This document shows positions 39,479 through 64,000 of a DNA stretch of 64,000 nucleotides, in pieces. The notes below the pieces were generated by a model that worked only from the letters and a program-made list of their open reading frames with translations, made no database searches and was not told the DNA's origin. This stretch comes from Giardia intestinalis (Eukaryota), in NCBI GenBank assembly GCA_000002435.2, contig CM018790.1; one strand, 5' to 3'. The stretch's first letter is position 1. Every line of letters starts with the position of its first letter. The position numbers and the translations under genes are program-made.

Positions 39479-41140
39479 ATGCAGGAGGAGGACTCTGCAG
39501 ACGCTCTGTTCCTCTCGCCAAATGCGAAGGGTTACATGGACAGCCTGCGTAAGGAGGGTCTCATAGTCAAACGAGATACAAACATAAAGCACCTCAACAA
39601 CTCTCCCTTGTACTACACCATCCGCCTCATCCTAATTATCTACCTAGTCACCTTCATTTTAGCAACCATTTATAACGCATCCGATTTGCTTTTTTGTTAC
39701 CTCCAGGCGCCAGTTCACAGCATTCGCATAAGAAATACTTCCCTGCCTACGGAGAATAAAGGCTTCCTGTTTAACGCATCAAGCTATCACCCAGGAGAAA
39801 CTATAGCATATTATTTGCAAGGATACCTGAAGGACGTCAACATCGTTGTTCTCGAGCCGTATGGTTTGAATACCAACTACGAACCCAACAGTATTGAGGA
39901 AAAACAAAATTATCTAATTAACATCGATCCAAATGTTACCCCACGCTTGATTCAAGGAGCGTTTCCAATGGCTATCGTGATGAACGGCACCAATAGTGCA
40001 GATCCTGCACACAGCATATGCATGGACTCCCTGTGGTTTACCACGTTTCCAAAGGCATCTGTCAGGCCCACAGATGGCGGTATTGCGGCTAGTGTCGATA
40101 TCCTCAACCCTAACAGAAAGCGTATATGGGTTAACTCCATGTGGTATAGCTTCTCATATTGGAGTAGCGTGGAGAGCATATACAGCGACACCAGGTTTAC
40201 GGACGACCAGAAGAAAGCACATGGTATACCAAATCTTTCAGACGTCCCCAAGACTAATTATTACTGTACAACACAAATATCCAGCATTCTTCCCAGTCAG
40301 TACAACAAGTCTAATGTTCCCATCTGGTTTATGAACCTTAGCGAAGCTTCTACTGCTAGACTAAAGGGAATTATCTGCTCTAGTAACTATGGATTAGTCC
40401 TCAATTTATCAACGTGGTTCTGCATTTCGCCTCTTCTAATTTATGACTTACGCCTGAAAAAAGTTATGCTATCTAATGTAACCTTTAACGGTAACTTAGT
40501 TTTAGATTTTAGAACAGACGAAAAAGATTCATCTATTACTCCCGAGACATTTTCCTGCTTACATCCTGAGGAATTCTATATACCATATAACTTAATATTG
40601 AATAACTCTTCTCTTAGAATCATGACGGTAACAAAAGACATTAAAGAGCTCGTCATAGACTCCTTTGGCCAATCCAGTTTTACATTCACTATTCCAAAGC
40701 GTGTGCTTACGTGTACACCAGGTAACATTTCACTTGGGGCACCCATTGCTGCCAACGAAGAGCCGTGCAGGCTAGAATTCAGTGGAATCTCTGGCGAGTC
40801 CTACTTTACTGGAGACTTTCACAGATACTACTCGGCTAGATACATAGCACCCTTGAACAAGCTCACTGAGCTCACGGTTGTTGTTAATCTCCATGTCTTG
40901 GACGATTTGACTCTTTCATTTCCATTTTGTTCGTCAAAGGTTACCCCAAAGTTTCCTTTGAACGTAATGGACTCTAGAAATAATGCAATTTTTTCACTTG
41001 ATTATGTTGAGGATGCAGAGATTGTATTTAAGGGTGCTTCTTCTAACACAGTAGGCCAACACTTTGTTGCTACAGTCACCTGCGACGGGGCGGGGCGGGG
41101 GTTCACGCTCGCGCTCCGGGCGCAGCCAGCCAGGCAGTAA
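39479..41140 (+). CDS. hypothetical type-II-like membrane protein (N-terminal TM, N-glycosylation-site-rich ectodomain)
   Basis: ORF-track start is a GTG; the ATG is at 39479 ([11 protein letters not shown]). [24 protein letters not shown]. The last ~20 codons run into the GC-rich block. Confidence 0.45.
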
Positions 41141-41218
41141 ACGAGGACACGAGGCGCCGCTCCCGGGCCACACAACACGGTACTCTGCCATCTGTTCTGG
41201 TATTTTTCTCCGCTCCGA

Positions 41219-41291
41219 GGGCGGTTAGCTCAGTTGGTAGAGCGCTTGCCTAGCATGCAAGAGGCCGGGGGTTCAAATCCCTCATCGTCCA
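41219..41291 (+). tRNA. tRNA-Ala (anticodon AGC)
   Basis: Hand-folded cloverleaf. Acceptor gggcggt/atcgtcc with G3:U70 (the Ala identity pair). D-arm gctc-agttggtag-agcg. Anticodon stem cttgc/gcaag with loop cTAGCAt. T-arm ggggg-ttcaaat-ccctc. Discriminator A. Confidence 0.8.
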
Positions 41292-41991
41292 CTTTCCGTC
41301 CCGCTCCACCGCACGGCCTGCAGCTCAGCGCGCCCTTGTGGGGCCTTGTCGTGCTCGCTGGGGCGCTTCCTGTTAATTTCTGGGGCCTTGCTCTTCGCCG
41401 TAAATGACCGACCTTGACCATGTGTGCTGTTCTGTACATGCAGCAGCTAGTTGTGAGCCGCGCCATCACCCCGTGGACGACCGTGGTCTGCAGCTTGTTC
41501 AGCGCAGCTTTCACTCGTTCTTGTAAGTATAAAGGCGCGCAAATCATCTCCCTGTTAGTCAATATACTCAGCTAGTGGGTCTACAGTGTGCCGAGACTAA
41601 AGCTCGTTGTAGAATTTATTGCAGGCATACTTAGAAGCACACAGGATCTTCACAGCGCACAGCACGAGTCTAAACTTATCTAGTGCTAAACTTTCGAAAA
41701 AAGACTGACAGTAGACTCGCTATCCCTGGTAAACGGGCATATATGTGTGAATAAAATACCAGTAAGGCTATGCAGAGCAGGGTCTACGTTGAAGAGGCCT
41801 GGATCTCGAAATGGAAAGAGAAAATAGAGCAAAAAAGTGAAGAATATTCTTCGAAAACAAGCGGCAGAAATAGTCCTAGATGCTAGATGAAGCATATCCT
41901 GGTCACAGAAGCCGCCGGCGACGCCAAATCACAACCGTTACGCTATATTAATGCATCAGATTGTGGCCATATATAATATTTGCAGAAGACC

Positions 41992-42945
41992 ATGGTTGGC
42001 TGCTGTCTATCACCCGCTGACCAAATTGAGGTCCTTCGTAAGCTAGCTGAAGAAGTTATCAGGGTACGAAAGATCCAAGAGACTGCAAATGATCTTGTTG
42101 CAAATCCTTACAGACTTTATACTTACGTTATAAAAACGTCTGTAAACTGGCGCAAAATTGCCACGGAGATCAACCAAAATCGCAACAGGATCTACCACTG
42201 GTACCGTGAAACGCATCTAAGAAACATTCTGAACATAAAGATGACAGAAGAAGATCGTCAGATTATCCGTGGAATTATCATAGATGGGATTGAAAGCAGA
42301 AGGATTGTGAGAGAAGACATCTATGGAAAGGTTCGCGAGAAATTTGGGAAAAAGTATCCACGCCAAGAATTGCGGATGACTTATAACAATATAATCAACA
42401 GCCGTAGTATCAAAACCCTCTTCAAGAAGTGCGGTATTCAGCATTCCTCGAGACGCAGCAGATCATGTGCGGCCATCCATCACCCATCTAGCGCAGAGCA
42501 GTGCCTCCCTAACGAGGAGGTGTTTAAACCACCCGTATTTCGCCTACCTGGTTACAATGATGAAACCCCATCTTCTCCTCAGGACGAAGACGAAACAGGG
42601 ACGTCTGTACCTGAGAACTCGCTATCTGCGCCACCAGAGTCTGTTGCTTGCAGCATTGTCGAGCCAAGGAACCTACCATCCAGCCTTTCCTTGGTTCCGC
42701 CCTTCGCGCCCACTCCTAGCGCTGCTCCGAATGTTTATCCGATCCCGGGTGTCTATCCGGCCCCTGGTGCCGTCCCTTATCTCCAGGCGTCGGGGGTGCT
42801 CAGTCTACAGCCGACGCCCTACCCCTTCGGCTTCGGGGTGCCGCTGACATACGTCCCTGTTCTGATACAATCGCCAGGACATACTGGCGGATGGCCCGTG
42901 GGCACGGGTGACGGTCCGCTCGGAAGGCCGACCAGGCAGCCCTGA
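41992..42945 (+). CDS. Myb/SANT-like HTH protein with Pro-rich C-terminus (paralog B)
   Basis: VNWRKIATEINQNRNRIYHWYRETHL and TEEDRQIIRGIIIDGIESRR. Paralogous to 22032..22922 (shared blocks IRVR, LVANP, YHWY.ET, MTYNN, SSRRS). The ORF-track start is a TTG; the ATG is at 41992. Confidence 0.5.
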   Translation: MVGCCLSPADQIEVLRKLAEEVIRVRKIQETANDLVANPYRLYTYVIKTSVNWRKIATEINQNRNRIYHWYRETHLRNILNIKMTEEDRQIIRGIIIDGIESRRIVREDIYGKVREKFGKKYPRQELRMTYNNIINSRSIKTLFKKCGIQHSSRRSRSCAAIHHPSSAEQCLPNEEVFKPPVFRLPGYNDETPSSPQDEDETGTSVPENSLSAPPESVACSIVEPRNLPSSLSLVPPFAPTPSAAPNVYPIPGVYPAPGAVPYLQASGVLSLQPTPYPFGFGVPLTYVPVLIQSPGHTGGWPVGTGDGPLGRPTRQP

Positions 42946-45104
42946 GCCCCTGCTGCACCGCCTCGCACCAGAGGAGGAATCACGGTCTACAGCCAGAAGG
43001 GCAAAAGAGGCGCGTGGGTGGAAGCGCTCTCCCGATTTTCTTTTCGAGCTCGAACAGAACAGCCGTAGAGACTGTACGAAAACATCCTACAGTACCATCG
43101 AGGCCTCGCACGGAGGGGTTCTGAATGGACGAACGCCTAGGCTGGGAGCCATTCTAGAGCCGATTCTGGCCGAGGAAGGGGCTCCCCGCTTACGGGGGCA
43201 TGGCGGCTCCGCTGGCCACGTACGGCGACAGTTGCCGGGTCAGCGGCCCAGCCAAACCAGCGATGCCGCTGCGGAAGCCACCCCCGGCCCTGTCCCACAC
43301 AGTCGATGCCCTTGGCAGCCGCCTGCTCCAGTCCAGATCCACCCCACCGGCTGCGTGCCAGGGCCAGACATCTAGCAACCACAGAGACACGTCCACCGAG
43401 GCCGACACTGGCTGCACACACCGACCGGCGCGTCGATTCGAGGCACAGACGCGCATTTTTTCTTTTGTCCGGCGAGATTCCGGGCTGCGCTGGCTGCACG
43501 GATGCACGCAGCTGTTCCGCGCCGGCCGGGGCTTTCCGAGGCAGGCCTTGCGCGAGAACGCGACGTCTCGTGCAGGTCCACCGACCCTCTGGCGGGCCCA
43601 CGGCCGCGGAGTGTCCGTCCCTGTTGCGATGCAGTGCACACGGCTTTGTAGCACGTGCAGAGACCCAGTTGCCCTGCCCTGGCTGTGGCTCCTGCGCGCT
43701 GCGGCCAGCCACTGAGACCAGCCCCCATTGGAGCAGGCCACGGCAGGGCCCGCCGGACAAGCTCTCTACATGAGCACATGCTGCACAGCTTAGAGGCGAA
43801 CGCTGCACAGCCCGGCTAGTGCTCGCTGCCCCTATCGCTGCGTGGTACCTCTTCGTGAGACGACTGCGCAAGGCCACCCGATCGAGGGCTACGGCAGGAC
43901 GCAAAGAGTGGACTAGTTCAGGGCGTTGTGCATCTAGTAGGCCTGTGAGTACGCCTAGGTCGTGTATAGCTATTACATCAACATACTCATGTAGGTGGAT
44001 ACAACTGATTGCTCCGAATGGACTGGTTCTTGATGGCGTGGGCTGATGGAAGGACGCATTTGTATTACAGGTCCAAGCATAGAGGGTGGCAGCAGGAAAC
44101 GAAAAGTGGCCTGATTGCTGGTGTGCAGGTAAATGCAGCTATTTACATTTGACTTACCTAGCATACTGGATGATCATACTGATTGGATTCCGATAAAATG
44201 CATGCACGAGACTTACTGGTGTCTACTGATTTAAGAATTGAATGAGCAAACGCTAGGATAAGCTTGGTATGCCAATAGATAAATCACATTTAGGGAGGTA
44301 ACAATGAAATTTGTAGGAATAAAGAGACGCTCATAATATGCTGTTTCGATGATAGTAAAGGCTCTAGCACGAAGTTCATTAATCTATTATCAACAGAGAT
44401 AATAAGAAATCCAGGAGAAATGATAGCGAATCTATAATACACCCCATAAAAGGCTATAAGCACTATGGGATAATTAAGAAATGTGAAGGATATACCAGAG
44501 AATGTTATTTAAAAGGAAAGAAGTGCGTATTCAAAATCAGCAATAGTAACAAGGATAGCCTCGTTGCCAAGGATTCCATCACTGTCATCCTTATTGTCAA
44601 CCTTTCTGTCAGAGGTTCTTTTACTGTAGGAAAGTATAAACATAATCATCTATTTAAGTGGTAAACGCATCGTCTAACATCTGCTCAGCAGCCTTACACA
44701 GAAGTCCCGAAATAAGTAGTCACGGGGCAGAGTCTCCTGACGCTGCCAAATAAGCATATATAGTGCTCCCTCTGCATGGAGCACTGGAGGCCCGGCACGG
44801 AGTGGCCACAACTTCTCGTGGATACAGGCTGGTCGAAGCCGCTGGTGGCTGTATCCTCCAACCCCCTGCTTCAGAGCGTGGCTGCGCATGCTCTGCACGG
44901 CGCCTTCTCCTGCAGTGTCCGTGCGCTCGCCGGATGGAGCGAACCCAGCTAGCTACGCGGCCGCCACTGCAGGCCCCTCTTCACCCTGTATGCAGAAGCG
45001 CTGACCCGGGAAGAGGTGTCCCAGGGAGCCACGGGCAGCTGGTTGGAGTGAAACACGTTGGGACTTTTTGAAAATGGCCCTGTCCCGTGCCGGCCACGCG
45101 GCCT

Positions 45105-45725
45105 CTAGACCAGCGAGGCGAGGAGCTTCTTGATCCCTGGGCGCGCACGGTAGCCATCAGATAGCTCGCGCAGCGGTGGAAACTGGTCCACGAGCTCCGG
45201 ATACTCTGCGTCCGCATAATACAGGACCTCCAGGACCGCGTAGTCCGAATAGAGCGGCTCGGGAGCCAGGCTCCGGAGGCTCAGCACGTCCCGGGTCAGA
45301 ACGGTCAATCCCGGAAGGATCCTGTTCTGTCGGTAGGCCGCGATGCACTCCGAGCGCGTCATCTCTGCCCCAGCGGCAAGGGCCTCTGCCACGGCTTCGG
45401 GCTCCTTCCAGACGGCGGCAAGAAGATCCTCACAGAAGAGCACCAGGGCCCGCGCAGCAGCCTGCACCTGCAATGACGTGCTGTACCGCCCCAGGCTCGC
45501 CCCCAGGTACTCTAGAATGACCATGCCCCCGGCCACCCGCGCTGCGCTGTCTTCCCACACGGGGAGCGTGCACGATGGTGCACCTACCTTCGCCGCGGCC
45601 ACCTGCTCAGCGCTCGCCAAGGGCGCCCACTCGTACCGTATCTCCAGGTCTGCGAGCAGGAGCCGGCACTTCAATGCGGTGCCCCGGGCGTCGTAGTACG
45701 TGAGTCTCGGCGGAACTACGTCCAT
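45105..45725 (-). CDS. glutathione S-transferase-fold protein (sigma/alpha-like cytosolic GST), GC-rich codon usage
   Basis: MDVVPPRLTYYDARGTALKCRLLLADLEIRYE...LPVWEDSAARVAGGMVILEYL aligns to the sigma-GST N-domain (KLTYFNMRGRAEIIRYIFAYLDIQYE...IPILEVDG..SLAIARYL). The C-domain aligns too. The ORF-track start is a TTG; the ATG is at 45725, preceded by 'gggaagtaaa'. Confidence 0.5.
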   Translation of the reverse strand: MDVVPPRLTYYDARGTALKCRLLLADLEIRYEWAPLASAEQVAAAKVGAPSCTLPVWEDSAARVAGGMVILEYLGASLGRYSTSLQVQAAARALVLFCEDLLAAVWKEPEAVAEALAAGAEMTRSECIAAYRQNRILPGLTVLTRDVLSLRSLAPEPLYSDYAVLEVLYYADAEYPELVDQFPPLRELSDGYRARPGIKKLLASLV

Positions 45726-46813
45726 TTTACTTCCCCGGTGGGCTCGTATCAACCGTGCCAAGGTGCGAGGCAACCCCTGGCACGCGGGCCGCCTCTCCCA
45801 GGGGGAGATCCTTGGGTTTCAGTTTACAACCTGAGCACCAGCTTCGTGTAGCTGCTATGCATTGCTAGCTACTACTGCCTGCATAGATAGTGGTGGGGTT
45901 GGGGTGGACACTAGGCTGGCGCGGTTTATGGAGGTCGTCTGCCTCCCGGGTCGCTTGAACCTAGCCGGAGTCTTCCCATTGGACCCTCTAAGTCATATCA
46001 CGAATCATAGGACGGATAAACTAGCCCCTAGCGGGTCAAAAGGGTCGGCAGTGATCGCAGCCACTGTGTCACTCGAGGACCTGTTGAGGCCCGGGACTCT
46101 GCAGAAGCCCCTCACTAGCTCGGTCTTGAAGTCCACGCTCTTGTGTGCCAAGATCCACGTCTTGTTATGCGTGCCGTGCTTTCCAGTACAATCGTGCTTA
46201 TACTTGTCGCCCTCTCTAATGCAGCTTCTAATGCTACCATGACGGGAGTTCTCGCTGTTTTGTACTTCATGTTTGTCAACACGGCCTAGGTGCCCTGCTG
46301 TCTGCTCTGCAGTCGCTTTATCTCCTGCTAAAAGGAAGTGAGAGCTCTTGGGTATCCGGTAAGACGTCCGGGCAAACGCGATAATGCTTCGATGAGTGTA
46401 CGTTAGTCGCATCGGCACAGAGCGCGTGCTAACCGGACGAAGCCATGTGCCTGCTGACTTCTATACAATATTCTAAGGCTATCCGGTCTCTGCATGGCAC
46501 CGCCAGGTGTGTAGTGGGGCCTGTGGCCATTAAGACCCAGAAGAGCCTCTTCTCCTACTTGGCTTCGGAGTCACTCCCAGTAGAGTATTGTTATGAGGCT
46601 GGTGTGCAGAGAAACACCGAATAGTTTGTACCGGTACACATGACCCCTTATCCCCAGACGGCACTCGCCATGGCTAGGCATTCGTAGAACCGCAGCATCG
46701 TGGGCTTGTGCACCGCTCACTGCCCATGCACGTGTAGCTGCAGACACACAAGCCAGTCGAGAGGCGCTTGCTTGCCCGGCTCCCTCATCACTGTTCAGAA
46801 CATCGAACTCCTT

Positions 46814-46893
46814 ATGCGAGCCACCGCCGCCCTGGGCAAGCGGGTCTCCCTCATCCCTGCATCAACCAAGATCAAAACCTAGAGTTCGAACTC
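46814..46893 (+). repeat. 80-bp repeat unit, copy A of an internal inverted pair
   Basis: atgcgagccaccgccgccctgggcaagcgggtctccc...ctagagttcgaactc. About 80% identical to the reverse complement of 48391..48465; the first 35 nt differ at 2 positions. Confidence 0.55.
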
Positions 46894-48390
46894 AGGTGTC
46901 AAGCGACTCTGGTGGGAGAAAAAGAACTTTTGTTCTGCCCTCTTCCCAAGAACGAGACAGGACAACCACGATCAGGGGACGATCATGATACGCTCCACAA
47001 GGCAGCCCCGAGCCGCCTGGAGACCAGACCCTGGCCTTCCTCGAGACCTAGCAGATTGCGTTCCACTGGATGTACATGGGTGGCGTTTGCATGGCGCAGG
47101 GAGACGCAGGCTGATGGGTACAGCGGTCTTGCTCGACATAATGAACTCCAACAGTAGACGGCCTCTGCCAGGCGAGTGTGCCCCGTCCCGAGGAGCTGCG
47201 TCGGGGCCTTCCTCCGGCTGCGACACACGAGGTATCTGGACTCGGTCCCTCAGGGCCCTGCGCATGCTTCTGTGCTGCGGGAGACAGAACCTGCTCGCCA
47301 GGAGCTGAAGGAGAGGCCCCGCTCAGTACCCATGCCGACGACACATTCAGCTTCCATAGTGACGACAAGCCTGGCGAAACGCTATAGCTCGACGGTCAAC
47401 ACTGGGTGTGGGAGCACTGAGGGGCAGGAGGCCTCCTTTCTAACTAGTCTCGAAGGAGCTTCCAAGACAACGAAGAGCCGAAGCTAGTGATGATGCGCCG
47501 ATCATTTGCCACGCTTGTCGAGATGGACCCACACGTGACCTATGTGAATCCCTCGACAGGCAAGTCGGCCCTTGGGGTGCTTGGCTGACAGAGGCGGACT
47601 GATCCCGACCGCACCGAAGAGTGGTAGCGGCTTGGACCACCTGCCGGGCGTCTGCCGCAGTAGCTGGCAGTGTCTGACATCCTCGAGTAGATGGGCGCCA
47701 AGCGAGACGGCCTGAGGGTGAACCAGTCCTGACCGCTCCCGGTGTCTCAGACGACGCCTCTTAGAGAGGTGGCCCTGGACCGACGCCTCGACAGACCGAA
47801 GCATCACCCCAGGTGTGCTGTGCGGTGTGAAGACGGACGTAGTCCGCATCGTCAGCTGAGCCAGACGCACTGCACAGGGTGAGCGTCGACATGATCTCGT
47901 GCTAGGTGATGGACCACCTGCAAGAGCGCACTGCGATCCATGGGCAGAGGGATGGGCCTCTTCCCCGACACCACCGCATGGGATTACTCCATCGGCATCC
48001 ATGAACGCGTACTCTGACTCCAAGACAGAGGCGTACGGGGGGCGCGCTCTCCCGGTCATACTCGGGACCGATGATACAATCCACGAGGAGACGAAGAGGC
48101 ACCCCGAGGAACGGGGTAGACACCCGGGGTCGTGGCGTATCCCATCTTCGTCGTAGAGCATCAGCGCCACAAAGCTACTCCGGAGTACATGGCCAGAGTC
48201 AAGCTTCCAAGGCCAGATCCTGTGACCGACGGCAGGCCCTGATATAGCGGGTGTCCACCCAGGTGCCAGACGATAGTTGACTCCGATGGGTCAGAGGAAG
48301 GGAAGTCCTAGAGGGCACCGCGAGGAGCGGCAGCTTCCAGGGGAAGCGGGAATAGGAGTTCTTCCGCCGGGATCAAGGGCATCCGCCTCT

Positions 48391-48465
48391 CGAACTCTGG
48401 ATTTGGATCTCGGCTGGTACAGGGGCGAGAGAGACTCGCTTGCCCAGGGTGGCGGTGGCTCGCAT
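48391..48465 (-). repeat. copy B (inverted) of the same repeat; with copy A brackets a ~1.5-kb segment
   Basis: The reverse complement reads atgcgagccaccgccaccctgggcaagcgagtctctctcgcccctgtaccagccgagatccaaatccagagttcg. Confidence 0.55.
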
Positions 48466-51400
48466 GGGAAGATTACTCAGATAGCAGGCGACAGCCCCAC
48501 CCCGGCTAAAAAACTTGAGGCAGCCGTTGCACCCGCCGCCCCCAGGACAGAGCTTCTGCACGCATGGCCAGCTGCCCTCGTCAGTCCGGTCTACTGGTCC
48601 AATAGTCTGGGGACCCTTTACGCCGTTTTCTGGCATACGATGTATCGCAACTGCTCATGGGAGTAAGCAGTATGAAAAGGCAATTGCATGTGTGGACAGC
48701 GTGTTATGCTCGTCTCAGAGGACCGATGTGTCTAAATACGGATCGCTGTACTGAGCCACACGCCCCACTGTCTTGCGCCAGTGACTGCCTCCACCACTGC
48801 ACTTGCTACAATGGAGCTGTGTCGGCCCAACAGATTGAACATGCCCCATATCGGCTCCCTCTGACGATGCGTACACGCCGCATAAGGTCTGATAGTAGAG
48901 CGGACACCGTGTGCCGAGGCGTCTGCCATTGATGGGAGACAGCACTTGGTTGCACCAGAGGTGCCTTTATGTAGGCCTACAATCTCTGTGCCTGCCCATC
49001 CACCGGTTGTAATGACAACTGCACACTCGGAAAGGCGCTATGGAAAGCTGCCTTTCAAGATGAGACGTAAACCCACATATAAAGCCAGAAGCAGAACCTT
49101 GTGCACAAACTGTTATGATCCTAGTGTGGTGACCGGTTTGGACTGCGGCACGCTCCTCGCCTATCTTATGTTCGTTTGCATGGTCGCTGCTAATGTTGAA
49201 CAGGACTGCGAGGAGATCTGTCTTTGGCTGCGCTCATCTTATAACACTTACCCCTTGATGACACACCTTAGCAAAGGAGGATGTCAGCCAGGTGCGTAGA
49301 AGGCTGCCCGTGCATGACGATTCCTGGAGAACTGGTTCATACAGAGAAGGTAGAGGTGACTAGCGGACCAGTTGGGCAAGGCTGACACCAGAGAGGCCAG
49401 CCACCGACCTGGATTGCAATAGGGACGCCTGTAGTGTCTTTCTTCCCTTCGGGTGTAGAAAGGTCGTGAGGCCCGCGGACAAGCTAGACGCTGCTTTCTG
49501 ATTTTATGCATTTGTAGCAGCATAGTGTTTATAGGGGTCTGCTTTGCCTGAGGCCGAGGACGTTCGCTTCCTCCTCGTATACGGACGAAGATCGGTTATA
49601 AGGATACACTGTGCAGGCTGGTACCAGTCGACGTGGTTGCTGTCCACAAATGTCTCGCCTGCGTCTTCTCATGGCAGATGATTACTAGCAGCGCTCTCAG
49701 CCCACGTGGCTAAGTCTACGGTGCATCTCCATTTCGGTCAAGGGTTGTATACGCATTACGTAGTCTGATTGATCATCAGCCAGGATAGTGTGGTCCACTC
49801 CTGTCCCCTGCTTGTCCATCTCGTGCAACTACTGCTGATGGCTTTTCTGGGTCAGTGGGTGCTTCCGTCAGTCCCACAAAGGAATGTGTCATGCAGACGG
49901 CCACTACAGGCAAGAGTCTTGTCTATCAAGAAAAGGGTCAATCGGTTTACTGCGTGGGGATCCTCTGTGCGTCTCATATAAGCCCGGCAGACCTTGTGCC
50001 CCCAGTATCTCCTCACAAGCCCCACCAGGCTCTTTTACCGTCTGGAATATCGCTACTGCCAAGCACCTTAGCTTCACTTGGCCACCCAGGGCGTTGACCC
50101 TTTGCAGCGCACTGTGGGCGTACTCACTGTGGGAGATGCACAATCAGCATTGGTCTTCTCAGCTCATCGTCTGTATGGTACTATGCTGCTTCTCAGCACA
50201 ACCCATTCTGTCGACCAGCAGGCCTTCAGACCAGGCAGCATCCCACCAAGGGGCGGTAGCAGGGACCGTGACGCGTATCTCCACCAAGGCACGGCCTCCT
50301 GGGGCATGAAGCGGGACCTCTGCCATCCTGTGGCCCTACTGATTCCTCGGATAGCAGAGATCGGAGCAGCCTAGGCTAGCGCCTTTGGGTCTCCATCTGT
50401 TCTCGTTGTCTGAGGTATACTTGACTCCAGAGACTCAGAAGGGTGCTGTACTATGTTCGTGCCTACGAGTCTTAGCCAGGCAGGGCTACCCTCTTGGAGA
50501 TTGCGCTGAGGTAGCCACATACCTGGAGCTCACCACAGCGGACCCACAGGGTCCAATCCATGGAACCCTTACCTGTCGAATGCAGGCCGTAATTGCAGCC
50601 CCACTGGTGCAGACTTTCTTAGAATAACCGGTCGACTATAGAGCCCCCCCCCACTCAGTCCACGTGAATGGACCACTCTCATCGATGGCCTACCTTGCAC
50701 GCCGAACGATCCCTACAGGCGAACAAAAATCATCCAGCCCGTAGCAGTGGACATCCTCTACACCGATGAATGGATGATCACAGCAGCCGCTTTCCTATTG
50801 AAGATTCTCCAGCCACTGAGGCCCAGGCCGGCCTCCTGCAGGATTCTTAGCAGGATCGTGCCCGATGCATGTTTGTGGCACTCCCCTCAAGGTGTATTCT
50901 GTTGGACCTTCGCTTCCTATACTGGCCTGCGAACATCGAGCCCTTCTAGCGGGGCCATACTGGAGATCACAAGGATATGGTGTCTTCGGAGACTATCCGG
51001 CTTCTGAGCCACACAATAGGGGCCCACTTCTCGCAGCAGCATCACGGAGAGGTGTATAGAGCTATACCATACCCTCTACCAGGTGACATGATGCATAAAT
51101 TAAGGGTAGGACACTTACACCGATCGGCATATCTACCCATGACCAGACACAGATTGGCCCGAAGGTAGCAATTAAATGTTGCTCGACACCCTTATCAGTG
51201 GATGGGCGCCCAACTACCCTGGTACCCGTACGAGGCCACAAGGGGCGCTGGGTCATAGATCTACTTAATGGCTGAGAAAGCGGCATGGACGCATCAGACC
51301 CCCATTCTTTCTATTCAAGTAGCCCACGACAGAGAGCCCTTTGACACTCCACACCCACAGGTTCGGGGTGCTGCGGGCAATCGTACTCCACTATTGCTTG

Positions 51401-53010: not shown

Positions 53011-55711
53011 GCGTTACTTTATGTAGCTTATGTAGATGTGCTGCTAGGCTCACTTGCTGGTGTGTCCAGAAGTTTCACGAGTAAATCCTCGTTCAAGTCC
53101 TGGCTGTCCAAAGACGAGAACTGATTGTGGATAACATGACGGAGAGTCCTCTCCAGTGATGCATCCAGAGCCTGGTGCGCTCCTCTGCCGTTTCGCAGGC
53201 GTGTGCTCAGGCTGAGTATGCACGTCGGTCCTTTCGGGGTTCAGGCCTTCTCGTGGACTCTCTGCTCTACCAGCGGTGTCTCTCCTTGGTCTTCCTTCAC
53301 GGTGGGTGAAGCTTGGATCGCCGTCTTTTTTAGATGCCCCGTCTGTCAGGGGCTGCCATCGGGCTCTCCGCTGGCCGCCCCTCGGTGTCCGTCCGGCTGT
53401 GTCCCGGGTCAGCGCTTCTACAGTCGCGGTCACGTAGGTCTCAGTGGGCCAGCTGGGGGGTGGGGCGGGGGTATGGGCGGTGAGGCTGGAGGGGACCGGG
53501 TGGGGGCTGAGGTGGGGTGTCCGTATGTGATCCTGGGTCCGGTGGGTCATTGCGGTGGTGGGTGATCCCCGCTCTGTTTGCTAAGGTGGTTGTGTCTGAT
53601 CACCAGCCTGCGTTGCACTCCCGAGACAGAGGCACCGACGATCGTGTCGTGTCCCCCGACTGAGCGCCTCCCTTAGCCCCTGCATGTCTCAGGCAGTACT
53701 GCTGCTCTGTCTGGCTGGTGCGTGAAGGGTGAGGCAGGCCATCGCAGCCCCTCCTGATGCTCTGCGCGGGTCTGCTGAGCCCCTGGCATGCCCTGTCCAG
53801 TGCCTCGACGGGGAGTTCGCCTCGGGCCAGCAGGGGTGTGGATGACCTTGTGAATGGGATGGGGTTCTCTCAGGCCTCTAGTGTGATGGCCCAGAAGACT
53901 GGCACGGTGGGGCACCAGTGACTGCACTGTCCCCGTGGTCAGCTGTGCTGCTCCTGGTGGGTCCTTGTCATGGAGCGCTGTGTGTTGTTCATAGGCAGAG
54001 GTGATCCCTCTTGGTCTCAAGATGCTCTACCAGCAGAGAGAAGCACGCTGAGGGTCACCCAACATCACCTGCTGTGTCCTCTTGGGAGTTCCCGATGTGA
54101 TCTATCAGGACCTTGACACCTCCTCGTGGCTCTGATGACCCCTCGGGGAGAGCCGGCATCCTATACTGAGGGGCGTACACCTTCCTGCATGAGCTGGGCC
54201 CCACTGCACTGCCCCCAAGGAGGTCTGCTATGAGAGGCAGTGGGATGATTGACAGCCCCTCAGAGTGCGGTGGAGGGTGCTCGTGGTCATCTCTGTGACC
54301 GGGCATCACTCATGATGGTCGGCTCTGTGCCTTATGGTGCTCAGAGACCACCTGTGCTCCATCGCCTGCTGGACAGCCGGGCCTCTTGTGGCGTCCGAAG
54401 GTCTCCTCACTCCTCTGGTCACTGCCCCCTCGGATCATCGGTGGAGGCCAGCGAGTCTTCGGAGTCTGGTGCCTGCCTGGGTGTCATGGGGGGCTGGCAG
54501 CTGTCAAGGCTCTGCCACTGCTCACCTGCCTGGAGTGTGCCTCCCTTGGGCCTGCTTTGCTGTGCTGCTTGAGTCCTCTGGCTTCTATCAGGCCCTGGTT
54601 GTGAGGGTGACCCCACCTGGCCTTCTGATGCCCCTGTGGATGAGCATAGCAATGTGTCTGGCTGGGGATCTCTAGTGCCCGTGTCTGTCACTGCCTCTCG
54701 GGTGCTCGGGTAGTTGCCTGGCGCTCTCGTATGGGCACACAGTCAGCGTATGTGGGTGGTCCTCCTGCACTCGTGTCCGTCTGTGTGCACTGTCACTCAG
54801 TCTCGAGAGCAGGCCAGTGCAGTCACCAGGGCTGCTGTCAGAGGGAGTCGTCTGCCACTACCATCGCTCGAGCAGCCCCTGCAGATCAGGCTGGTTGCTG
54901 TGCACCCTCATGGCAGGGCTGCTTGGCTCCCTTGGTCTCCTCTCTGTCCCGGTGTGCACGGCTCCTTCGGGTGGCTGACGGGGTAGTGGCCTCCGGTGAG
55001 TCTGCACTGGGAGGCACCGAGGAGGGAGGACAGCTAGGCTGGCACCACTCTCTGACTCCTGAGGGTTGCCTGGATGGAGGCACTCACGAGTCCACAGAGG
55101 GGTGAGTTATAGATACACAGCCCCCAGTCACCACAGCTGCGATCACCCCAGTCTATCGAGTGGCCAGGGGCACAGACAACACCGCTCCAATGGCCCACCA
55201 GTCCCCTCCAGCCTCACCGTCCCATACTCCCGCCCCACCCACCATCCGAACCCACTGAGACCCAGGTGACTGCGACCGTAGAGCGCTGACTCGAGTCACA
55301 GCCGGACGGACACCGAGGGGCCCAGCCAGGGGAGAGCCCCGACAGCAATCACCGAGTCAGACGGGGCATCTAAAAAAGACGGCGATCCAAGCTTCACCCA
55401 CCGTGAAGGAAGACCAAGGAGAGACACCGCTGGTAGAGCAGAGAGTCCACGAGAAGGCCTGAACCCCGAAAGGACCGACGTGCATACTCAGCCTGAGCAC
55501 ACGCCTGCGAAACGGCAGAGGAGCGCACCAGGCTCTGGATGCATCACTGGAGAGGACTCTCCGTCATGTTATCCACAATCAGTTCTCGTCTTTGGACAGC
55601 CAGGACTTGAACGAGGATTTACTCGTGAAACTTCTGGACACACCAGCAAGTGAGCCTAGCAGCACATCTACATAAGCTACATAAAGTAACGCGTTTACTA
55701 CCTAAGTACAT

Positions 55712-56479
55712 CTACGCCTTGCCCCGGCAGAGGAACCACCAGCAGAGGAACCCAACGAGACCACCAACAACTATGACAGCAGCCACGGCGATGCCCGCAA
55801 TGGCGCCGGTAGAAAGGCCGCTCTTGTTGACGCTAGAAGGCACACATTGGTTGTCTCTTAAACTGAATCTGTCACTACATGTCTTACATTTTGCTACCGT
55901 TTCATCTCCAGCTGGAGCATCACACGTCGCGCAGTTCTCCACCCCCACGTATTGCTTATCTCCGGTGAGAGTCACCCCTGTCGTGTCCGAGCACGGGATA
56001 ACAGACTGCTCGGTAGCCTTGGCGTTTGGTGCAGCAAAGTAGCCTTCTCCCGCCTCTGTGCAGGCTCCGTTAGATGCGCGCTTACAAAGGCTCTGCCCCA
56101 CGCCTGTGCTGGCGTCGTAGCATCCGCCCTTGTATAGGAAGTAAGTGGCGTCTGTTCCGCACTGCTCACACACAGTGGAGTCCTGTCCAGGAGGGTCATT
56201 ATTGGCCAGCTTGCACCCTGCGGTCGCAATTGATGGGGTGCCCTGTGCGGTGCAGACTCCGTTTATGGGGACAAACCCTGCGTTGCACTGCTTGCACACG
56301 GTATCCGCGCCGACCTGCTCTTCCATCCCGTCCTTGCAGTTCCCTGCAGCATATGCATTATCACGATTGCCTGTATCTCTATTAGACCGAGATCCCGAGC
56401 GTAGATATTCAGAGTGGTGATTTGTTGTATGCCGGACAGCGAGCGTACTTAGCACAAGGTAGAAGGCTATGAGTAACAT
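55712..56479 (-). CDS. VSP: variant-specific surface protein (VSP), identical second copy, convergent with 52224..52991
   Basis: Identical 255-aa translation ending ...FLCWWFLCRGKA on the minus strand. Confidence 0.85.
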   Translation of the reverse strand: MLLIAFYLVLSTLAVRHTTNHHSEYLRSGSRSNRDTGNRDNAYAAGNCKDGMEEQVGADTVCKQCNAGFVPINGVCTAQGTPSIATAGCKLANNDPPGQDSTVCEQCGTDATYFLYKGGCYDASTGVGQSLCKRASNGACTEAGEGYFAAPNAKATEQSVIPCSDTTGVTLTGDKQYVGVENCATCDAPAGDETVAKCKTCSDRFSLRDNQCVPSSVNKSGLSTGAIAGIAVAAVIVVGGLVGFLCWWFLCRGKA

Positions 56480-59400
56480 TGATATCCCTCTCGGCTTATT
56501 ACATAGATAAGAGTCCGATAGTTAGAGCTAAAAACGTCTATCTGACTGTGCTATGCAGGTAGTCCGAAGAGACCCTACTCCTACGATACCTCGGTCTAGG
56601 AAGGAGGAGCCCAGCGAATGCCAAACGCGTTCATTATATAAGCCCACCACCTCGTCCATCGCGGGCCCTCCAGGCCTGGCCAAGCGACATCCGAGGAGCC
56701 CCGCACTCCTTGCAAAGCACGCAAGGAAGTAGAAATTCTAAAAGCAAACAGCAGAACCGTCCCGTGCGCCGGGCATCCCCCTTCTCCGCGGCCAATCGGA
56801 GGACAGCCCGGGCGCCCCCACTGTGCCCATGCCCGCTACCGGCGCCTCTGCATTTCCGGAGAGCCAGACACCTGCACTTCCCTGCGCTGGTTAGAGCTCT
56901 ACGGGCCCATGTATGCCGGCACTCTCCTATCCGCTCCTAGTATTCCCACCCACCAGATCATGCCCGCGACCCTTTGCTGTCGCAGGGGAGCTACGCTCAA
57001 AGACAAACCTTTGCTGGATCCCGAGAGAAGATCCCAGCAGCCGCTAGAGTCTGTGGAAGGCGTAAGCCAGCATAAACTAGCTAACGAGGCGCACCGGCCT
57101 GCTAAGTGCACATGGCGCTAGTTTTGATCTTTTGGAGTAAATACTAATAAGCCACCCCAGTACACAACGAGGTGTCAGGTGAAGCGCAGAAGGCGCAGGC
57201 TAGACCTTCCAAGCCTGGGCAGAGAGGAAACGCTATCCAAACCGCTGCTTTCTGGGCCAGTCAACTCTCTCCCACCCAAGGTTATCCTGATGCCATCCGC
57301 TGCAAGCAATAGTGGAGTACGATTGCCCGCAGCACCCCGAACCTGTGGGTGTGGAGTGTCAAAGGGCTCTCTGTCGTGGGCTACTTGAATAGAAAGAATG
57401 GGGGTCTGATGCGTCCATGCCGCTTTCTCAGCCATTAAGTAGATCTATGACCCAGCGCCCCTTGTGGCCTCGTACGGGTACCAGGGTAGTTGGGCGCCCA
57501 TCCACTGATAAGGGTGTCGAGCAACATTTAATTGCTACCTTCGGGCCAATCTGTGTCTGGTCATGGGTAGATATGCCGATCGGTGTAAGTGTCCTACCCT
57601 TAATTTATGCATCATGTCACCTGGTAGAGGGTATGGTATAGCTCTATACACCTCTCCGTGATGCTGCTGCGAGAAGTGGGCCCCTATTGTGTGGCTCAGA
57701 AGCCGGATAGTCTCCGAAGACACCATATCCTTGTGATCTCCAGTATGGCCCCGCTAGAAGGGCTCGATGTTCGCAGGCCAGTATAGGAAGCGAAGGTCCA
57801 ACAGAATACACCTTGAGGGGAGTGCCACAAACATGCATCGGGCACGATCCTGCTAAGAATCCTGCAGGAGGCCGGCCTGGGCCTCAGTGGCTGGAGAATC
57901 TTCAATAGGAAAGCGGCTGCTGTGATCATCCATTCATCGGTGTAGAGGATGTCCACTGCTACGGGCTGGATGATTTTTGTTCGCCTGTAGGGATCGTTCG
58001 GCGTGCAAGGTAGGCCATCGATGAGAGTGGTCCATTCACGTGGACTGAGTGGGGGGGGGCTCTATAGTCGACCGGTTATTCTAAGAAAGTCTGCACCAGT
58101 GGGGCTGCAATTACGGCCTGCATTCGACAGGTAAGGGTTCCATGGATTGGACCCTGTGGGTCCGCTGTGGTGAGCTCCAGGTATGTGGCTACCTCAGCGC
58201 AATCTCCAAGAGGGTAGCCCTGCCTGGCTAAGACTCGTAGGCACGAACATAGTACAGCACCCTTCTGAGTCTCTGGAGTCAAGTATACCTCAGACAACGA
58301 GAACAGATGGAGACCCAAAGGCGCTAGCCTAGGCTGCTCCGATCTCTGCTATCCGAGGAATCAGTAGGGCCACAGGATGGCAGAGGTCCCGCTTCATGCC
58401 CCAGGAGGCCGTGCCTTGGTGGAGATACGCGTCACGGTCCCTGCTACCGCCCCTTGGTGGGATGCTGCCTGGTCTGAAGGCCTGCTGGTCGACAGAATGG
58501 GTTGTGCTGAGAAGCAGCATAGTACCATACAGACGATGAGCTGAGAAGACCAATGCTGATTGTGCATCTCCCACAGTGAGTACGCCCACAGTGCGCTGCA
58601 AAGGGTCAACGCCCTGGGTGGCCAAGTGAAGCTAAGGTGCTTGGCAGTAGCGATATTCCAGACGGTAAAAGAGCCTGGTGGGGCTTGTGAGGAGATACTG
58701 GGGGCACAAGGTCTGCCGGGCTTATATGAGACGCACAGAGGATCCCCACGCAGTAAACCGATTGACCCTTTTCTTGATAGACAAGACTCTTGCCTGTAGT
58801 GGCCGTCTGCATGACACATTCCTTTGTGGGACTGACGGAAGCACCCACTGACCCAGAAAAGCCATCAGCAGTAGTTGCACGAGATGGACAAGCAGGGGAC
58901 AGGAGTGGACCACACTATCCTGGCTGATGATCAATCAGACTACGTAATGCGTATACAACCCTTGACCGAAATGGAGATGCACCGTAGACTTAGCCACGTG
59001 GGCTGAGAGCGCTGCTAGTAATCATCTGCCATGAGAAGACGCAGGCGAGACATTTGTGGACAGCAACCACGTCGACTGGTACCAGCCTGCACAGTGTATC
59101 CTTATAACCGATCTTCGTCCGTATACGAGGAGGAAGCGAACGTCCTCGGCCTCAGGCAAAGCAGACCCCTATAAACACTATGCTGCTACAAATGCATAAA
59201 ATCAGAAAGCAGCGTCTAGCTTGTCCGCGGGCCTCACGACCTTTCTACACCCGAAGGGAAGAAAGACACTACAGGCGTCCCTATTGCAATCCAGGTCGGT
59301 GGCTGGCCTCTCTGGTGTCAGCCTTGCCCAACTGGTCCGCTAGTCACCTCTACCTTCTCTGTATGAACCAGTTCTCCAGGAATCGTCATGCACGGGCAGC

Positions 59401-60237
59401 CTTCTACGCACCTGGCTGACATCCTCCTTTGCTAAGGTGTGTCATCAAGGGGTAAGTGTTATAAGATGAGCGCAGCCAAAGACAGATCTCCTCGCAGTCC
59501 TGTTCAACATTAGCAGCGACCATGCAAACGAACATAAGATAGGCGAGGAGCGTGCCGCAGTCCAAACCGGTCACCACACTAGGATCATAACAGTTTGTGC
59601 ACAAGGTTCTGCTTCTGGCTTTATATGTGGGTTTACGTCTCATCTTGAAAGGCAGCTTTCCATAGCGCCTTTCCGAGTGTGCAGTTGTCATTACAACCGG
59701 TGGATGGGCAGGCACAGAGATTGTAGGCCTACATAAAGGCACCTCTGGTGCAACCAAGTGCTGTCTCCCATCAATGGCAGACGCCTCGGCACACGGTGTC
59801 CGCTCTACTATCAGACCTTATGCGGCGTGTACGCATCGTCAGAGGGAGCCGATATGGGGCATGTTCAATCTGTTGGGCCGACACAGCTCCATTGTAGCAA
59901 GTGCAGTGGTGGAGGCAGTCACTGGCGCAAGACAGTGGGGCGTGTGGCTCAGTACAGCGATCCGTATTTAGACACATCGGTCCTCTGAGACGAGCATAAC
60001 ACGCTGTCCACACATGCAATTGCCTTTTCATACTGCTTACTCCCATGAGCAGTTGCGATACATCGTATGCCAGAAAACGGCGTAAAGGGTCCCCAGACTA
60101 TTGGACCAGTAGACCGGACTGACGAGGGCAGCTGGCCATGCGTGCAGAAGCTCTGTCCTGGGGGCGGCGGGTGCAACGGCTGCCTCAAGTTTTTTAGCCG
60201 GGGTGGGGCTGTCGCCTGCTATCTGAGTAATCTTCCC

Positions 60238-60312
60238 ATGCGAGCCACCGCCACCCTGGGCAAGCGAGTCTCTCTCGCCCCTGTACCAGCCGAGATCCAA
60301 ATCCAGAGTTCG
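60238..60312 (+). repeat. mirror copy of repeat B in the right arm
   Basis: atgcgagccaccgccaccctgggcaagcgagtctctctcgcc... read directly at 60238. Confidence 0.55.
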
Positions 60313-61809
60313 AGAGGCGGATGCCCTTGATCCCGGCGGAAGAACTCCTATTCCCGCTTCCCCTGGAAGCTGCCGCTCCTCGCGGTGCCCTCTAGGACTT
60401 CCCTTCCTCTGACCCATCGGAGTCAACTATCGTCTGGCACCTGGGTGGACACCCGCTATATCAGGGCCTGCCGTCGGTCACAGGATCTGGCCTTGGAAGC
60501 TTGACTCTGGCCATGTACTCCGGAGTAGCTTTGTGGCGCTGATGCTCTACGACGAAGATGGGATACGCCACGACCCCGGGTGTCTACCCCGTTCCTCGGG
60601 GTGCCTCTTCGTCTCCTCGTGGATTGTATCATCGGTCCCGAGTATGACCGGGAGAGCGCGCCCCCCGTACGCCTCTGTCTTGGAGTCAGAGTACGCGTTC
60701 ATGGATGCCGATGGAGTAATCCCATGCGGTGGTGTCGGGGAAGAGGCCCATCCCTCTGCCCATGGATCGCAGTGCGCTCTTGCAGGTGGTCCATCACCTA
60801 GCACGAGATCATGTCGACGCTCACCCTGTGCAGTGCGTCTGGCTCAGCTGACGATGCGGACTACGTCCGTCTTCACACCGCACAGCACACCTGGGGTGAT
60901 GCTTCGGTCTGTCGAGGCGTCGGTCCAGGGCCACCTCTCTAAGAGGCGTCGTCTGAGACACCGGGAGCGGTCAGGACTGGTTCACCCTCAGGCCGTCTCG
61001 CTTGGCGCCCATCTACTCGAGGATGTCAGACACTGCCAGCTACTGCGGCAGACGCCCGGCAGGTGGTCCAAGCCGCTACCACTCTTCGGTGCGGTCGGGA
61101 TCAGTCCGCCTCTGTCAGCCAAGCACCCCAAGGGCCGACTTGCCTGTCGAGGGATTCACATAGGTCACGTGTGGGTCCATCTCGACAAGCGTGGCAAATG
61201 ATCGGCGCATCATCACTAGCTTCGGCTCTTCGTTGTCTTGGAAGCTCCTTCGAGACTAGTTAGAAAGGAGGCCTCCTGCCCCTCAGTGCTCCCACACCCA
61301 GTGTTGACCGTCGAGCTATAGCGTTTCGCCAGGCTTGTCGTCACTATGGAAGCTGAATGTGTCGTCGGCATGGGTACTGAGCGGGGCCTCTCCTTCAGCT
61401 CCTGGCGAGCAGGTTCTGTCTCCCGCAGCACAGAAGCATGCGCAGGGCCCTGAGGGACCGAGTCCAGATACCTCGTGTGTCGCAGCCGGAGGAAGGCCCC
61501 GACGCAGCTCCTCGGGACGGGGCACACTCGCCTGGCAGAGGCCGTCTACTGTTGGAGTTCATTATGTCGAGCAAGACCGCTGTACCCATCAGCCTGCGTC
61601 TCCCTGCGCCATGCAAACGCCACCCATGTACATCCAGTGGAACGCAATCTGCTAGGTCTCGAGGAAGGCCAGGGTCTGGTCTCCAGGCGGCTCGGGGCTG
61701 CCTTGTGGAGCGTATCATGATCGTCCCCTGATCGTGGTTGTCCTGTCTCGTTCTTGGGAAGAGGGCAGAACAAAAGTTCTTTTTCTCCCACCAGAGTCGC
61801 TTGACACCT

Positions 61810-61889
61810 GAGTTCGAACTCTAGGTTTTGATCTTGGTTGATGCAGGGATGAGGGAGACCCGCTTGCCCAGGGCGGCGGTGGCTCGCAT
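61810..61889 (-). repeat. mirror copy of repeat A in the right arm
   Basis: Reverse complement of gagggagacccgcttgcccagggcggcggtggctcgcat at ~61850-61889. Confidence 0.55.
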
Positions 61890-62977
61890 AAGGAGTTCGA
61901 TGTTCTGAACAGTGATGAGGGAGCCGGGCAAGCAAGCGCCTCTCGACTGGCTTGTGTGTCTGCAGCTACACGTGCATGGGCAGTGAGCGGTGCACAAGCC
62001 CACGATGCTGCGGTTCTACGAATGCCTAGCCATGGCGAGTGCCGTCTGGGGATAAGGGGTCATGTGTACCGGTACAAACTATTCGGTGTTTCTCTGCACA
62101 CCAGCCTCATAACAATACTCTACTGGGAGTGACTCCGAAGCCAAGTAGGAGAAGAGGCTCTTCTGGGTCTTAATGGCCACAGGCCCCACTACACACCTGG
62201 CGGTGCCATGCAGAGACCGGATAGCCTTAGAATATTGTATAGAAGTCAGCAGGCACATGGCTTCGTCCGGTTAGCACGCGCTCTGTGCCGATGCGACTAA
62301 CGTACACTCATCGAAGCATTATCGCGTTTGCCCGGACGTCTTACCGGATACCCAAGAGCTCTCACTTCCTTTTAGCAGGAGATAAAGCGACTGCAGAGCA
62401 GACAGCAGGGCACCTAGGCCGTGTTGACAAACATGAAGTACAAAACAGCGAGAACTCCCGTCATGGTAGCATTAGAAGCTGCATTAGAGAGGGCGACAAG
62501 TATAAGCACGATTGTACTGGAAAGCACGGCACGCATAACAAGACGTGGATCTTGGCACACAAGAGCGTGGACTTCAAGACCGAGCTAGTGAGGGGCTTCT
62601 GCAGAGTCCCGGGCCTCAACAGGTCCTCGAGTGACACAGTGGCTGCGATCACTGCCGACCCTTTTGACCCGCTAGGGGCTAGTTTATCCGTCCTATGATT
62701 CGTGATATGACTTAGAGGGTCCAATGGGAAGACTCCGGCTAGGTTCAAGCGACCCGGGAGGCAGACGACCTCCATAAACCGCGCCAGCCTAGTGTCCACC
62801 CCAACCCCACCACTATCTATGCAGGCAGTAGTAGCTAGCAATGCATAGCAGCTACACGAAGCTGGTGCTCAGGTTGTAAACTGAAACCCAAGGATCTCCC
62901 CCTGGGAGAGGCGGCCCGCGTGCCAGGGGTTGCCTCGCACCTTGGCACGGTTGATACGAGCCCACCGGGGAAGTAAA

Positions 62978-63598
62978 ATGGACGTAGTTCCGCCGAGACT
63001 CACGTACTACGACGCCCGGGGCACCGCATTGAAGTGCCGGCTCCTGCTCGCAGACCTGGAGATACGGTACGAGTGGGCGCCCTTGGCGAGCGCTGAGCAG
63101 GTGGCCGCGGCGAAGGTAGGTGCACCATCGTGCACGCTCCCCGTGTGGGAAGACAGCGCAGCGCGGGTGGCCGGGGGCATGGTCATTCTAGAGTACCTGG
63201 GGGCGAGCCTGGGGCGGTACAGCACGTCATTGCAGGTGCAGGCTGCTGCGCGGGCCCTGGTGCTCTTCTGTGAGGATCTTCTTGCCGCCGTCTGGAAGGA
63301 GCCCGAAGCCGTGGCAGAGGCCCTTGCCGCTGGGGCAGAGATGACGCGCTCGGAGTGCATCGCGGCCTACCGACAGAACAGGATCCTTCCGGGATTGACC
63401 GTTCTGACCCGGGACGTGCTGAGCCTCCGGAGCCTGGCTCCCGAGCCGCTCTATTCGGACTACGCGGTCCTGGAGGTCCTGTATTATGCGGACGCAGAGT
63501 ATCCGGAGCTCGTGGACCAGTTTCCACCGCTGCGCGAGCTATCTGATGGCTACCGTGCGCGCCCAGGGATCAAGAAGCTCCTCGCCTCGCTGGTCTAG
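62978..63598 (+). CDS. glutathione S-transferase-fold protein, second identical copy
   Basis: Mirror of 45105..45725 with identical translation. Confidence 0.5.
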   Translation: MDVVPPRLTYYDARGTALKCRLLLADLEIRYEWAPLASAEQVAAAKVGAPSCTLPVWEDSAARVAGGMVILEYLGASLGRYSTSLQVQAAARALVLFCEDLLAAVWKEPEAVAEALAAGAEMTRSECIAAYRQNRILPGLTVLTRDVLSLRSLAPEPLYSDYAVLEVLYYADAEYPELVDQFPPLRELSDGYRARPGIKKLLASLV

Positions 63599-64000
63599 AG
63601 GCCGCGTGGCCGGCACGGGACAGGGCCATTTTCAAAAAGCCCCAACGTGTTTCACTCCAACCAGCTGCCCGTGGCTCCCTGGGACACCTCTTCCCGGGTC
63701 AGCGCTTCTGCATACAGGGTGAAGAGGGGCCTGCAGTGGCGGCCGCGTAGCTAGCTGGGTTCGCTCCATCCGGCGAGCGCACGGACACTGCAGGAGAAGG
63801 CGCCGTGCAGAGCATGCGCAGCCACGCTCTGAAGCAGGGGGTTGGAGGATACAGCCACCAGCGGCTTCGACCAGCCTGTATCCACGAGAAGTTGTGGCCA
63901 CTCCGTGCCGGGCCTCCAGTGCTCCATGCAGAGGGAGCACTATATATGCTTATTTGGCAGCGTCAGGAGACTCTGCCCCGTGACTACTTATTTCGGGACT

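Follow-up and report, generated by a model that had tools for sequence, protein, structure and literature searches.

A chromosome-internal palindrome probably underlies a GC-rich, gene-poor block around a tail-to-tail pair of identical VSP genes in Giardia intestinalis

The 64,000-nt stretch of DNA analysed here (hereafter the window, with positions counted from its first letter) comes from Giardia intestinalis, and the window proteins that were tested gave exact matches to isolate WB C6, chromosome 2 (1,539,535 bp; assembly GCA_000002435.2). Its composition and gene density break sharply near 41 kb: guanine-plus-cytosine (GC) content is 0.471 over 1–41,070 versus 0.569 over 41,071–64,000, and accepted genes cover 91% of 1–41,140, where 18 genes form a compact array, versus 16% of 41,141–64,000. 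A GC-rich, gene-poor block had been proposed at 41,100–64,000 from the letters alone (the original prediction) and is confirmed here, except that it starts at about 41,071 and continues past 64,000. The block holds a large inverted repeat, in which 44,703–53,345 and 55,358–64,000 are reverse complements of each other with 8,642 of 8,643 nt identical, the sole difference being an A at 45,063 versus a G at the mirror position 63,640. The left arm spans 41,071–53,345, of which 44,703–53,345 is seen directly in both copies and 41,071–44,702 is probably duplicated past the window end; the right arm (55,358–64,000) is cut by the window end, and its outer end is predicted at about 67,632. From the outside inwards, each arm carries a tRNA-Ala gene, a gene for a hypothetical protein, a GST-like gene, about 6.5 kb of GC-rich non-coding DNA, and a VSP gene. 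The GST-fold and VSP genes had been noted as present twice, which holds, but the copies belong to opposite arms of an 8,643-nt inverted repeat, a palindrome that the original prediction did not describe.

The VSP gene lies at 52,224–52,991 (plus strand) in the left arm and at 55,712–56,479 (minus strand) in the right arm, so that the two copies are inverted and convergent (tail-to-tail), with their open reading frames (ORFs) 2,720 nt apart and with 255 of 255 amino acids identical. VSPs are recognised by a Cys-rich ectodomain, a single C-terminal transmembrane helix, a CRGKA tail, and an extended polyadenylation signal. Membership in the VSP family is solid: the Pfam VSP model (PF03302) scored 106.3 bits against a cut-off of 31.4, and the C-terminus reads ...FLCRGKA, with the CRGKA tail. 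The gene also has an initiator-like (Inr-like) start, ATCAATGTT, and an extended polyadenylation signal, ACTTAGGTAGTAAAC, 3′ of the stop codon. The pair is annotated as GL50803_00d117204/117204 and is known as vsp47, and its published figures equal those measured in the window, where arm identity ends 354 nt beyond the VSP stop codon. Specifically, a Sanger assembly gave vsp47 a 3′ divergence point of 354 nt and a distance of 2,721 (Adam 2010, Table 5; PMC2996952), and a PacBio assembly placed the pair on chromosome 2 with 255 amino acids, the orientation -> <-, and a distance of 2,720 bp (Xu 2020, Table 2; PMC7000408). The spacing of tail-to-tail VSP pairs in the latter table is strikingly uniform (2,526–2,813 bp), which hints at a spacer element common to VSP pairs; a protein search with six concatenated spacer ORFs gave no match and was uninformative on such an element. 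The same study reported a gene-poor tendency around VSPs and duplications of up to 20 kb (Xu 2020; PMC7000408). The feature itself is already published, and the block is an instance of a known property of VSP loci rather than, as had been suggested, something unusual for a compact genome.

The GST-like gene (KAE8302024/XP_001708273) occupies 45,105–45,725 (minus strand) in the left arm, mirrored at 62,978–63,598 (plus strand) in the right arm, with the single arm difference 42 nt past its stop codon. Its period-3 Fourier signal is 5.1–6.8 and its GC content at third codon positions (GC3) 0.79, and the putative assignment is marginal: Pfam GST_N_2 scored 27.2 bits against a cut-off of 25, and GST_N and GST_C_3 remained under their cut-offs. 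A search of 5.8 billion proteins found relatives of the product in Giardia only, and WB itself carries further GST-like paralogues on the 4.0-Mb chromosome (KAE8304971 and KAE8304978). Farther out, the hypothetical gene (GL50803_00117191/117192; 41,992–42,945, plus strand) encodes 317 amino acids that match a WB protein exactly, has a period-3 signal of 3.0–3.3, and differs between WB and isolate DH (assemblage A2) by about 1% versus 2–5% in its flanks. It had been called Myb-like, a label without Pfam support, as its product matched no family at E <= 5 and no Myb domain was detected. A paralogue with 40% amino acid identity over 153 residues lies in the core array at 22,032–22,922 (best Pfam match a sub-threshold HTH_23, E = 0.012) and is followed by a 536-amino-acid, Cys-rich membrane protein with VSP domains (23,299–24,909), so that a module of this hypothetical gene and a Cys-rich surface-protein gene occurs twice in the window. 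The module is seen again in DH, where the next gene after the hypothetical gene encodes a 609-amino-acid VSP. The tRNA-Ala (AGC) gene at 41,219–41,292 (plus strand; Rfam, 68.4 bits, and ARAGORN) lies just within the outer edge of the repeated segment. That edge is crossed by the ORF of GL50803_61276 (39,479–41,140), whose last ~23 codons, together with an AGTAAA signal overlapping the stop codon, fall in the duplicated segment (41,071–41,143); the copy of this sequence in the other arm is found upstream of GL50803_10979.

Most of the block is non-coding, and the evidence supports just three distinct protein-coding genes in it (hypothetical, GST-like, and VSP). The stacked ORFs described at 43,137–43,904 exist (six overlapping ORFs of at least 100 amino acids on both strands over 42,908–43,904), and the translations of non-gene ORFs in the block are indeed rich in Arg, Ala, Gly, and Pro (39% versus 23% in core genes). 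Codon-usage log-odds trained on the core, however, were clearly positive only over 41,992–42,945, 45,105–45,725, 52,224–52,991, and the mirror copies, and the period-3 signal was 3.0–6.8 over the three block genes but about 1 in the remaining block (core median 3.7). The GenBank annotation agrees with so few genes, since the accessions KAE8302021–26 are consecutive and leave no space for more. Of the 59 open frames in 42,946–52,223 that reach 75 amino acids, 58 gave no Pfam match (the 59th being the GST-like gene's own frame), a six-frame Pfam scan of the spacer (53,346–55,357) was empty, and neither set of scans contained relics of reverse transcriptase, NEK, ankyrin, or VSP. Likewise, tblastn with two VSP queries found no VSP pseudogene fragments in the non-coding DNA, and a search for tandem repeats returned nothing relevant. 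The view that the block is non-coding DNA in which only the named gene models are real is thus upheld by codon usage, periodicity, and Pfam scans together.

The proposal that high GC content produces the open frames stood less well. Open frames of 100 codons or more number 22 over 45,774–52,223 versus 10–11 ± 3 in mono- and dinucleotide shuffles, so GC content alone does not explain the stacking there; stop trinucleotides are about 10% under-represented in this interval. We therefore rejected purely compositional stacking at 45.8–52.2 kb on this two-fold excess, and we also rejected hidden genes, as the frames lack period-3 signal and codon bias and conservation extends over all frames. The non-coding DNA itself is heterogeneous. 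A GC-rich patch with stacked open frames at 42,946–44,160 (GC 0.63–0.67; period-3 signal 0.3–1.2; no Pfam match) is conserved as DNA in DH (97%) and in isolate P15 (assemblage E), an AT-rich patch (GC 0.35–0.43) follows at 44,200–44,700, and the 6.5 kb at 45,726–52,223 (GC 0.56) contain no detectable gene relics. The last of these is alignable with P15 only at 45.8–46.8 kb, with tblastx conservation in all frames.

Between the arms, the 2,012-nt spacer (53,346–55,357) has a GC content of 0.63 and is depleted in CpG (observed/expected 0.44) and TpA (0.47) compared with the arms (0.71–0.83 and 0.90–0.95, respectively), and a strong excess of T over A (skew down to -0.48) extends over 53.2–55.0 kb. 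The ends of the spacer (53,361–53,504 and 55,194–55,339, about 150 nt each) still pair at 86% identity, so the inverted repeat decays towards its centre and has no clean stop.

The position of the block beyond 64,000 was derived from the order of WB protein accessions. The 317-amino-acid product of the hypothetical gene has two of them (KAE8302022 and KAE8302025), and the series reads GL50803_61276 (-21), 117191 (-22), VSP (-23), GST-like (-24), 117192 (-25), GL50803_10979 (-26), and 10978 (-27), continuing to Nbp35 (-30). This order implies that the palindrome reaches out through the hypothetical gene on both sides and that core genes flank it on both sides, GL50803_61276 on one and GL50803_10979/10978 to Nbp35 on the other. 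The full arm would then be 41,071–53,345 (12,275 nt), for a total length of about 26.6 kb with both arms and the spacer. The window contains no TAGGG telomere repeat and no ribosomal RNA (rRNA) gene, Rfam finding one tRNA only; with core genes on both sides, this places the block inside the chromosome and not in a subtelomere.

Assemblies of two other isolates break at the same repeat boundary. In DH, the end of contig AHGT01000045 coincides exactly with window position 41,070, and on contig AHGT01000003 the sequence after GL50803_10979 matches 41,071–44,161 at 97.4%, with WB–DH homology stopping at 44,161. Beyond this homologue, the latter contig (AHGT01000003.1, 9,091–14,500) contains the 609-amino-acid VSP and then PGK, Cluap1, and proteasome alpha-7, which in WB lie ~50 genes to the left on the same chromosome (KAE8301970–72); either the contig was misjoined through the repeat, or a segment of ~110–135 kb has been inverted, with 44,161 as one breakpoint. 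In P15, one contig holds gamma-tubulin, 61276, tRNA-Ala, and the start of the hypothetical gene (window 27,968–42,188; 84.7% identity), and a second holds the GST-like gene, the hypothetical gene, and then 10979 (window 45,710–41,068; 77.4% identity), with weaker homology on to 46.8 kb. P15 thus has both junctions between the repeat and its unique flanks (at 61276 and at 10979), no more than ~15 nt from the WB/DH breakpoint, and core genes lie on both sides of the block in WB, DH, and P15. The two P15 copies are 100% identical over the available 1,099 nt, whereas identity between WB and P15 is 77–85%, and P15-specific substitutions are common to both P15 copies right up to the unique flanks. 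The repeated segment is also more diverged than the core (WB–P15, 78.8% versus 85.3%; WB–DH, 97.6% versus 98.6%), and the inner 4 kb of the P15 contig do not align to WB and contain a third paralogue of the hypothetical gene.

Several further observations concern these assemblies. A second P15 copy of the GST-like gene (ACVC01000177.1, 1–2,156), 96.8% identical to the one on the 10979 contig, sits beside a TOR/CPSF73 cluster in a 2-kb patch with a GC content of 0.69–0.76; the contig starts with an inverted partial copy of the GST-like 5′ end, and the region looks like another small palindrome. Across the core segment 27,972–41,070, GC content is 0.397 in P15 versus 0.456 in WB and 0.454 in DH, and core substitutions from AT to GC outnumber the reverse on the WB branch (58 versus 37) but are balanced in DH (35 versus 40). 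In the same segment, the gamma-tubulin ORF (37,960–39,435, minus strand) encodes 491 amino acids from the first ATG, as in the old WB and the DH annotations, whereas the current WB annotation uses an internal start that gives 472 amino acids, like most other isolates.

Taken together, we interpret the block as a chromosome-internal large palindrome on WB chromosome 2, built around a catalogued tail-to-tail pair of identical VSP genes, and we give this reading a probability of roughly 80%. The same breakpoints across isolates, the clustering of copies by lineage, and the decayed inner ends point to one old inverted duplication whose arms evolve in concert. In such a history, the inverted duplication would have arisen once, before assemblages A and E split, and arm-to-arm gene conversion, the obvious candidate mechanism, would have kept the arms nearly identical, as in Y-chromosome palindromes. 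Towards the spacer, where only 86% identity is left, conversion would cease, and the interior adjoining the VSP would turn over between lineages. The suggestion that the block was recently rearranged is accordingly only partly retained: the arms are indeed almost identical and their interior varies from assemblage to assemblage, but the duplication appears to predate the A/E split, and we replace the suggestion with an old, continually homogenised palindrome that has a fast-changing interior. The low gene density would then be the usual state of a VSP neighbourhood and no sign of a chromosome end or of foreign origin.

Why the block is GC-rich is a more speculative matter. In P15, GC content is likewise higher in the block (0.47–0.70) than in the core (0.39–0.45), and the GC3 of the GST-like gene, 0.79 in WB versus 0.37 in the orthologue of an AT-rich Giardia lineage, reaches 0.94 in each of the two P15 genes. 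That non-coding and synonymous sites are both enriched speaks for a neutral process, and raised GC could be a by-product of GC-biased repair. GC-biased gene conversion has been suggested earlier for the GC-rich ribosomal DNA of Giardia (PMC10123126); as an explanation of GC-richness in the repeatedly converted DNA of this block, we regard it as tentative, a serious candidate that is still somewhat more doubtful than probable.

Several points weigh against this interpretation or its parts. The duplication of 41,071–44,702, and everything beyond 64,000, is deduced, and the polishing of long-read assemblies can make repeat copies uniform. In P15, the perfect identity concerns the terminal 1.1 kb of two contigs from the 454 era, and collapse of the repeat into one consensus could have inflated it there. 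The departure of DH at 44,161 may mean that isolates differ in arm length, or that the contig was misjoined. As to composition, WB/DH substitutions polarised over 41,071–44,161 give an equilibrium GC of about 0.49, equal to that of the core, so ongoing GC-biased conversion in the outer arm is not shown, and the hypothetical gene has an ordinary GC3 of 0.51 although it lies within the arm.

The alternative that fares best is a single, very recent inverted duplication in the WB lineage (by fold-back repair), in which the arms would be alike simply because they are young and no continuing conversion would be needed. The 99.99% identity of the arms fits this model well, and recent duplication was favoured for identical VSP pairs by Adam 2010 (PMC2996952). 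It does not, however, account for the occurrence of both segment junctions in P15 and DH at the same breakpoint, for P15-specific substitutions in both P15 copies, or for inner ends whose decay to 86% identity implies age, and we consider it improbable. A different concern is that the mirror image is false, produced when long reads fold back into chimeras. Long-read sequencing is known to generate near-perfect palindromes as artefacts, and the right arm reaches the window edge. Yet the pair is also present in the Sanger assembly, with an identical divergence point (354 nt) and a spacing of 2,721 bp, and the old assembly places copies of the 317-amino-acid gene on two different scaffolds (XP_001705511 and XP_001708272). 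In addition, one base distinguishes the arms, unique core genes lie beyond the right arm, and the repeat boundary also interrupts the independently made DH and P15 assemblies. The same centre obtained with two sequencing technologies, the arm difference, and the unique genes past the right arm argue together against an artefact, which we judge very improbable.

No greater weight attaches to the subtelomeric domain suggested in the original prediction. The block is GC-rich and gene-poor and harbours a variant-antigen gene, which speaks for such a domain. A Giardia subtelomere, however, would be recognised by TAGGG repeats, ribosomal DNA units, or GilM/GilT retrotransposons in the vicinity and by a lack of distal core genes, whereas the window has neither TAGGG repeats nor rRNA genes, no retrotransposon relics (reverse transcriptase included) were detected in the Pfam scans, core genes border the block on either side in WB, DH, and P15, and the VSPs of G. 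intestinalis are scattered along chromosomes. A horizontally acquired island marked by its differing GC, the last of the earlier suggestions, is just as improbable: it could draw on the 10-point GC jump adjoining a tRNA gene and on a GST-fold gene in a host that is not known to use glutathione, but the GST-like protein has relatives only in Giardia, the VSP is Giardia-specific, the hypothetical gene belongs to a Giardia family with its core paralogue at 22,032, and block genes that are all Giardia-specific argue against acquisition. The same GC-rich block also stands at the same locus in A1, A2, and E, with the same junctions in assemblage E, and its GC-richness in P15 argues against recent import in particular; moreover, in an AT-rich, distant Giardia lineage (Logan ERR3333381), the GST-like orthologue, situated beside TOR/CPSF73, has that host's own low GC (GC3 0.37, like its neighbours).

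A sharp break in composition and gene density, striking as it is in a compact genome, has been documented for VSP loci and is no anomaly here. The probable additions to the literature are modest and comprise the length of the arms, their conserved breakpoints, and concerted evolution; in the literature searched, no description of outer-junction conservation across assemblages was found. The point of specialist interest is that a “cryptic” VSP pair lies within a predicted palindrome of ~26 kb whose arms probably show concerted evolution and whose breakpoints assemblages A and E have in common. If the same were true for the other 18 VSP pairs, they would offer a handle on mitotic gene conversion in an organism without known sex, as well as a neutral explanation of GC-rich, gene-poor islands. 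One may go further and imagine, though we think it unlikely in this full form, that VSP pairs are the cores of much larger old palindromes, that GC-biased conversion keeps their arms uniform and so yields GC-rich, gene-poor neighbourhoods, and that the convergent copies could also give long hairpin RNA by read-through of the 2-kb spacer, feeding the RNA interference that has been implicated in VSP silencing.

Among known systems, subtelomeric antigen domains (Trypanosoma VSG, Plasmodium var, and the pseudo-VSP arrays of G. muris) resemble the block in that antigen genes lie in fast-evolving, synteny-breaking DNA, but the block is internal, lacks telomere-associated repeats, and contains one VSP pair rather than an array. 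A parallel in mechanism is found in the ampliconic palindromes P1–P8 of the human Y chromosome, which are maintained, as on primate sex chromosomes, by arm-to-arm conversion for which a GC bias has been reported. They share with the Giardia structure inverted arms that are >99.9% identical around a unique spacer and that are more similar within than between lineages. In size, the Giardia structure falls short of them by one to three orders of magnitude, and it belongs to a tetraploid protist without known meiosis, so that the resemblance is one of mechanism only, with conversion here being our inference. The system to which the block belongs most directly is that of identical inverted VSP pairs in Giardia (e.g., vsp1267; PMC2996952; PMC7000408; G. 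muris, PMC7641422), with which it shares two identical tail-to-tail ORFs, a distance of 2.7 kb, 3′ flanks that diverge abruptly at 354 nt, and gene-poor surroundings. Pairs of this class have 2–4 kb of non-coding DNA between the ORFs and diverge 139–729 nt from the ORF, and the present values of 2,720 nt and 354 nt fall within both ranges. The published accounts cover the ORFs and their near flanks, and the table of Adam 2010 leaves the 5′ divergence point of tail-to-tail pairs blank. In the pair described here, arm identity passes through another gene and reaches no less than 7.5 kb upstream of the VSP, the probable extent being 11 kb.

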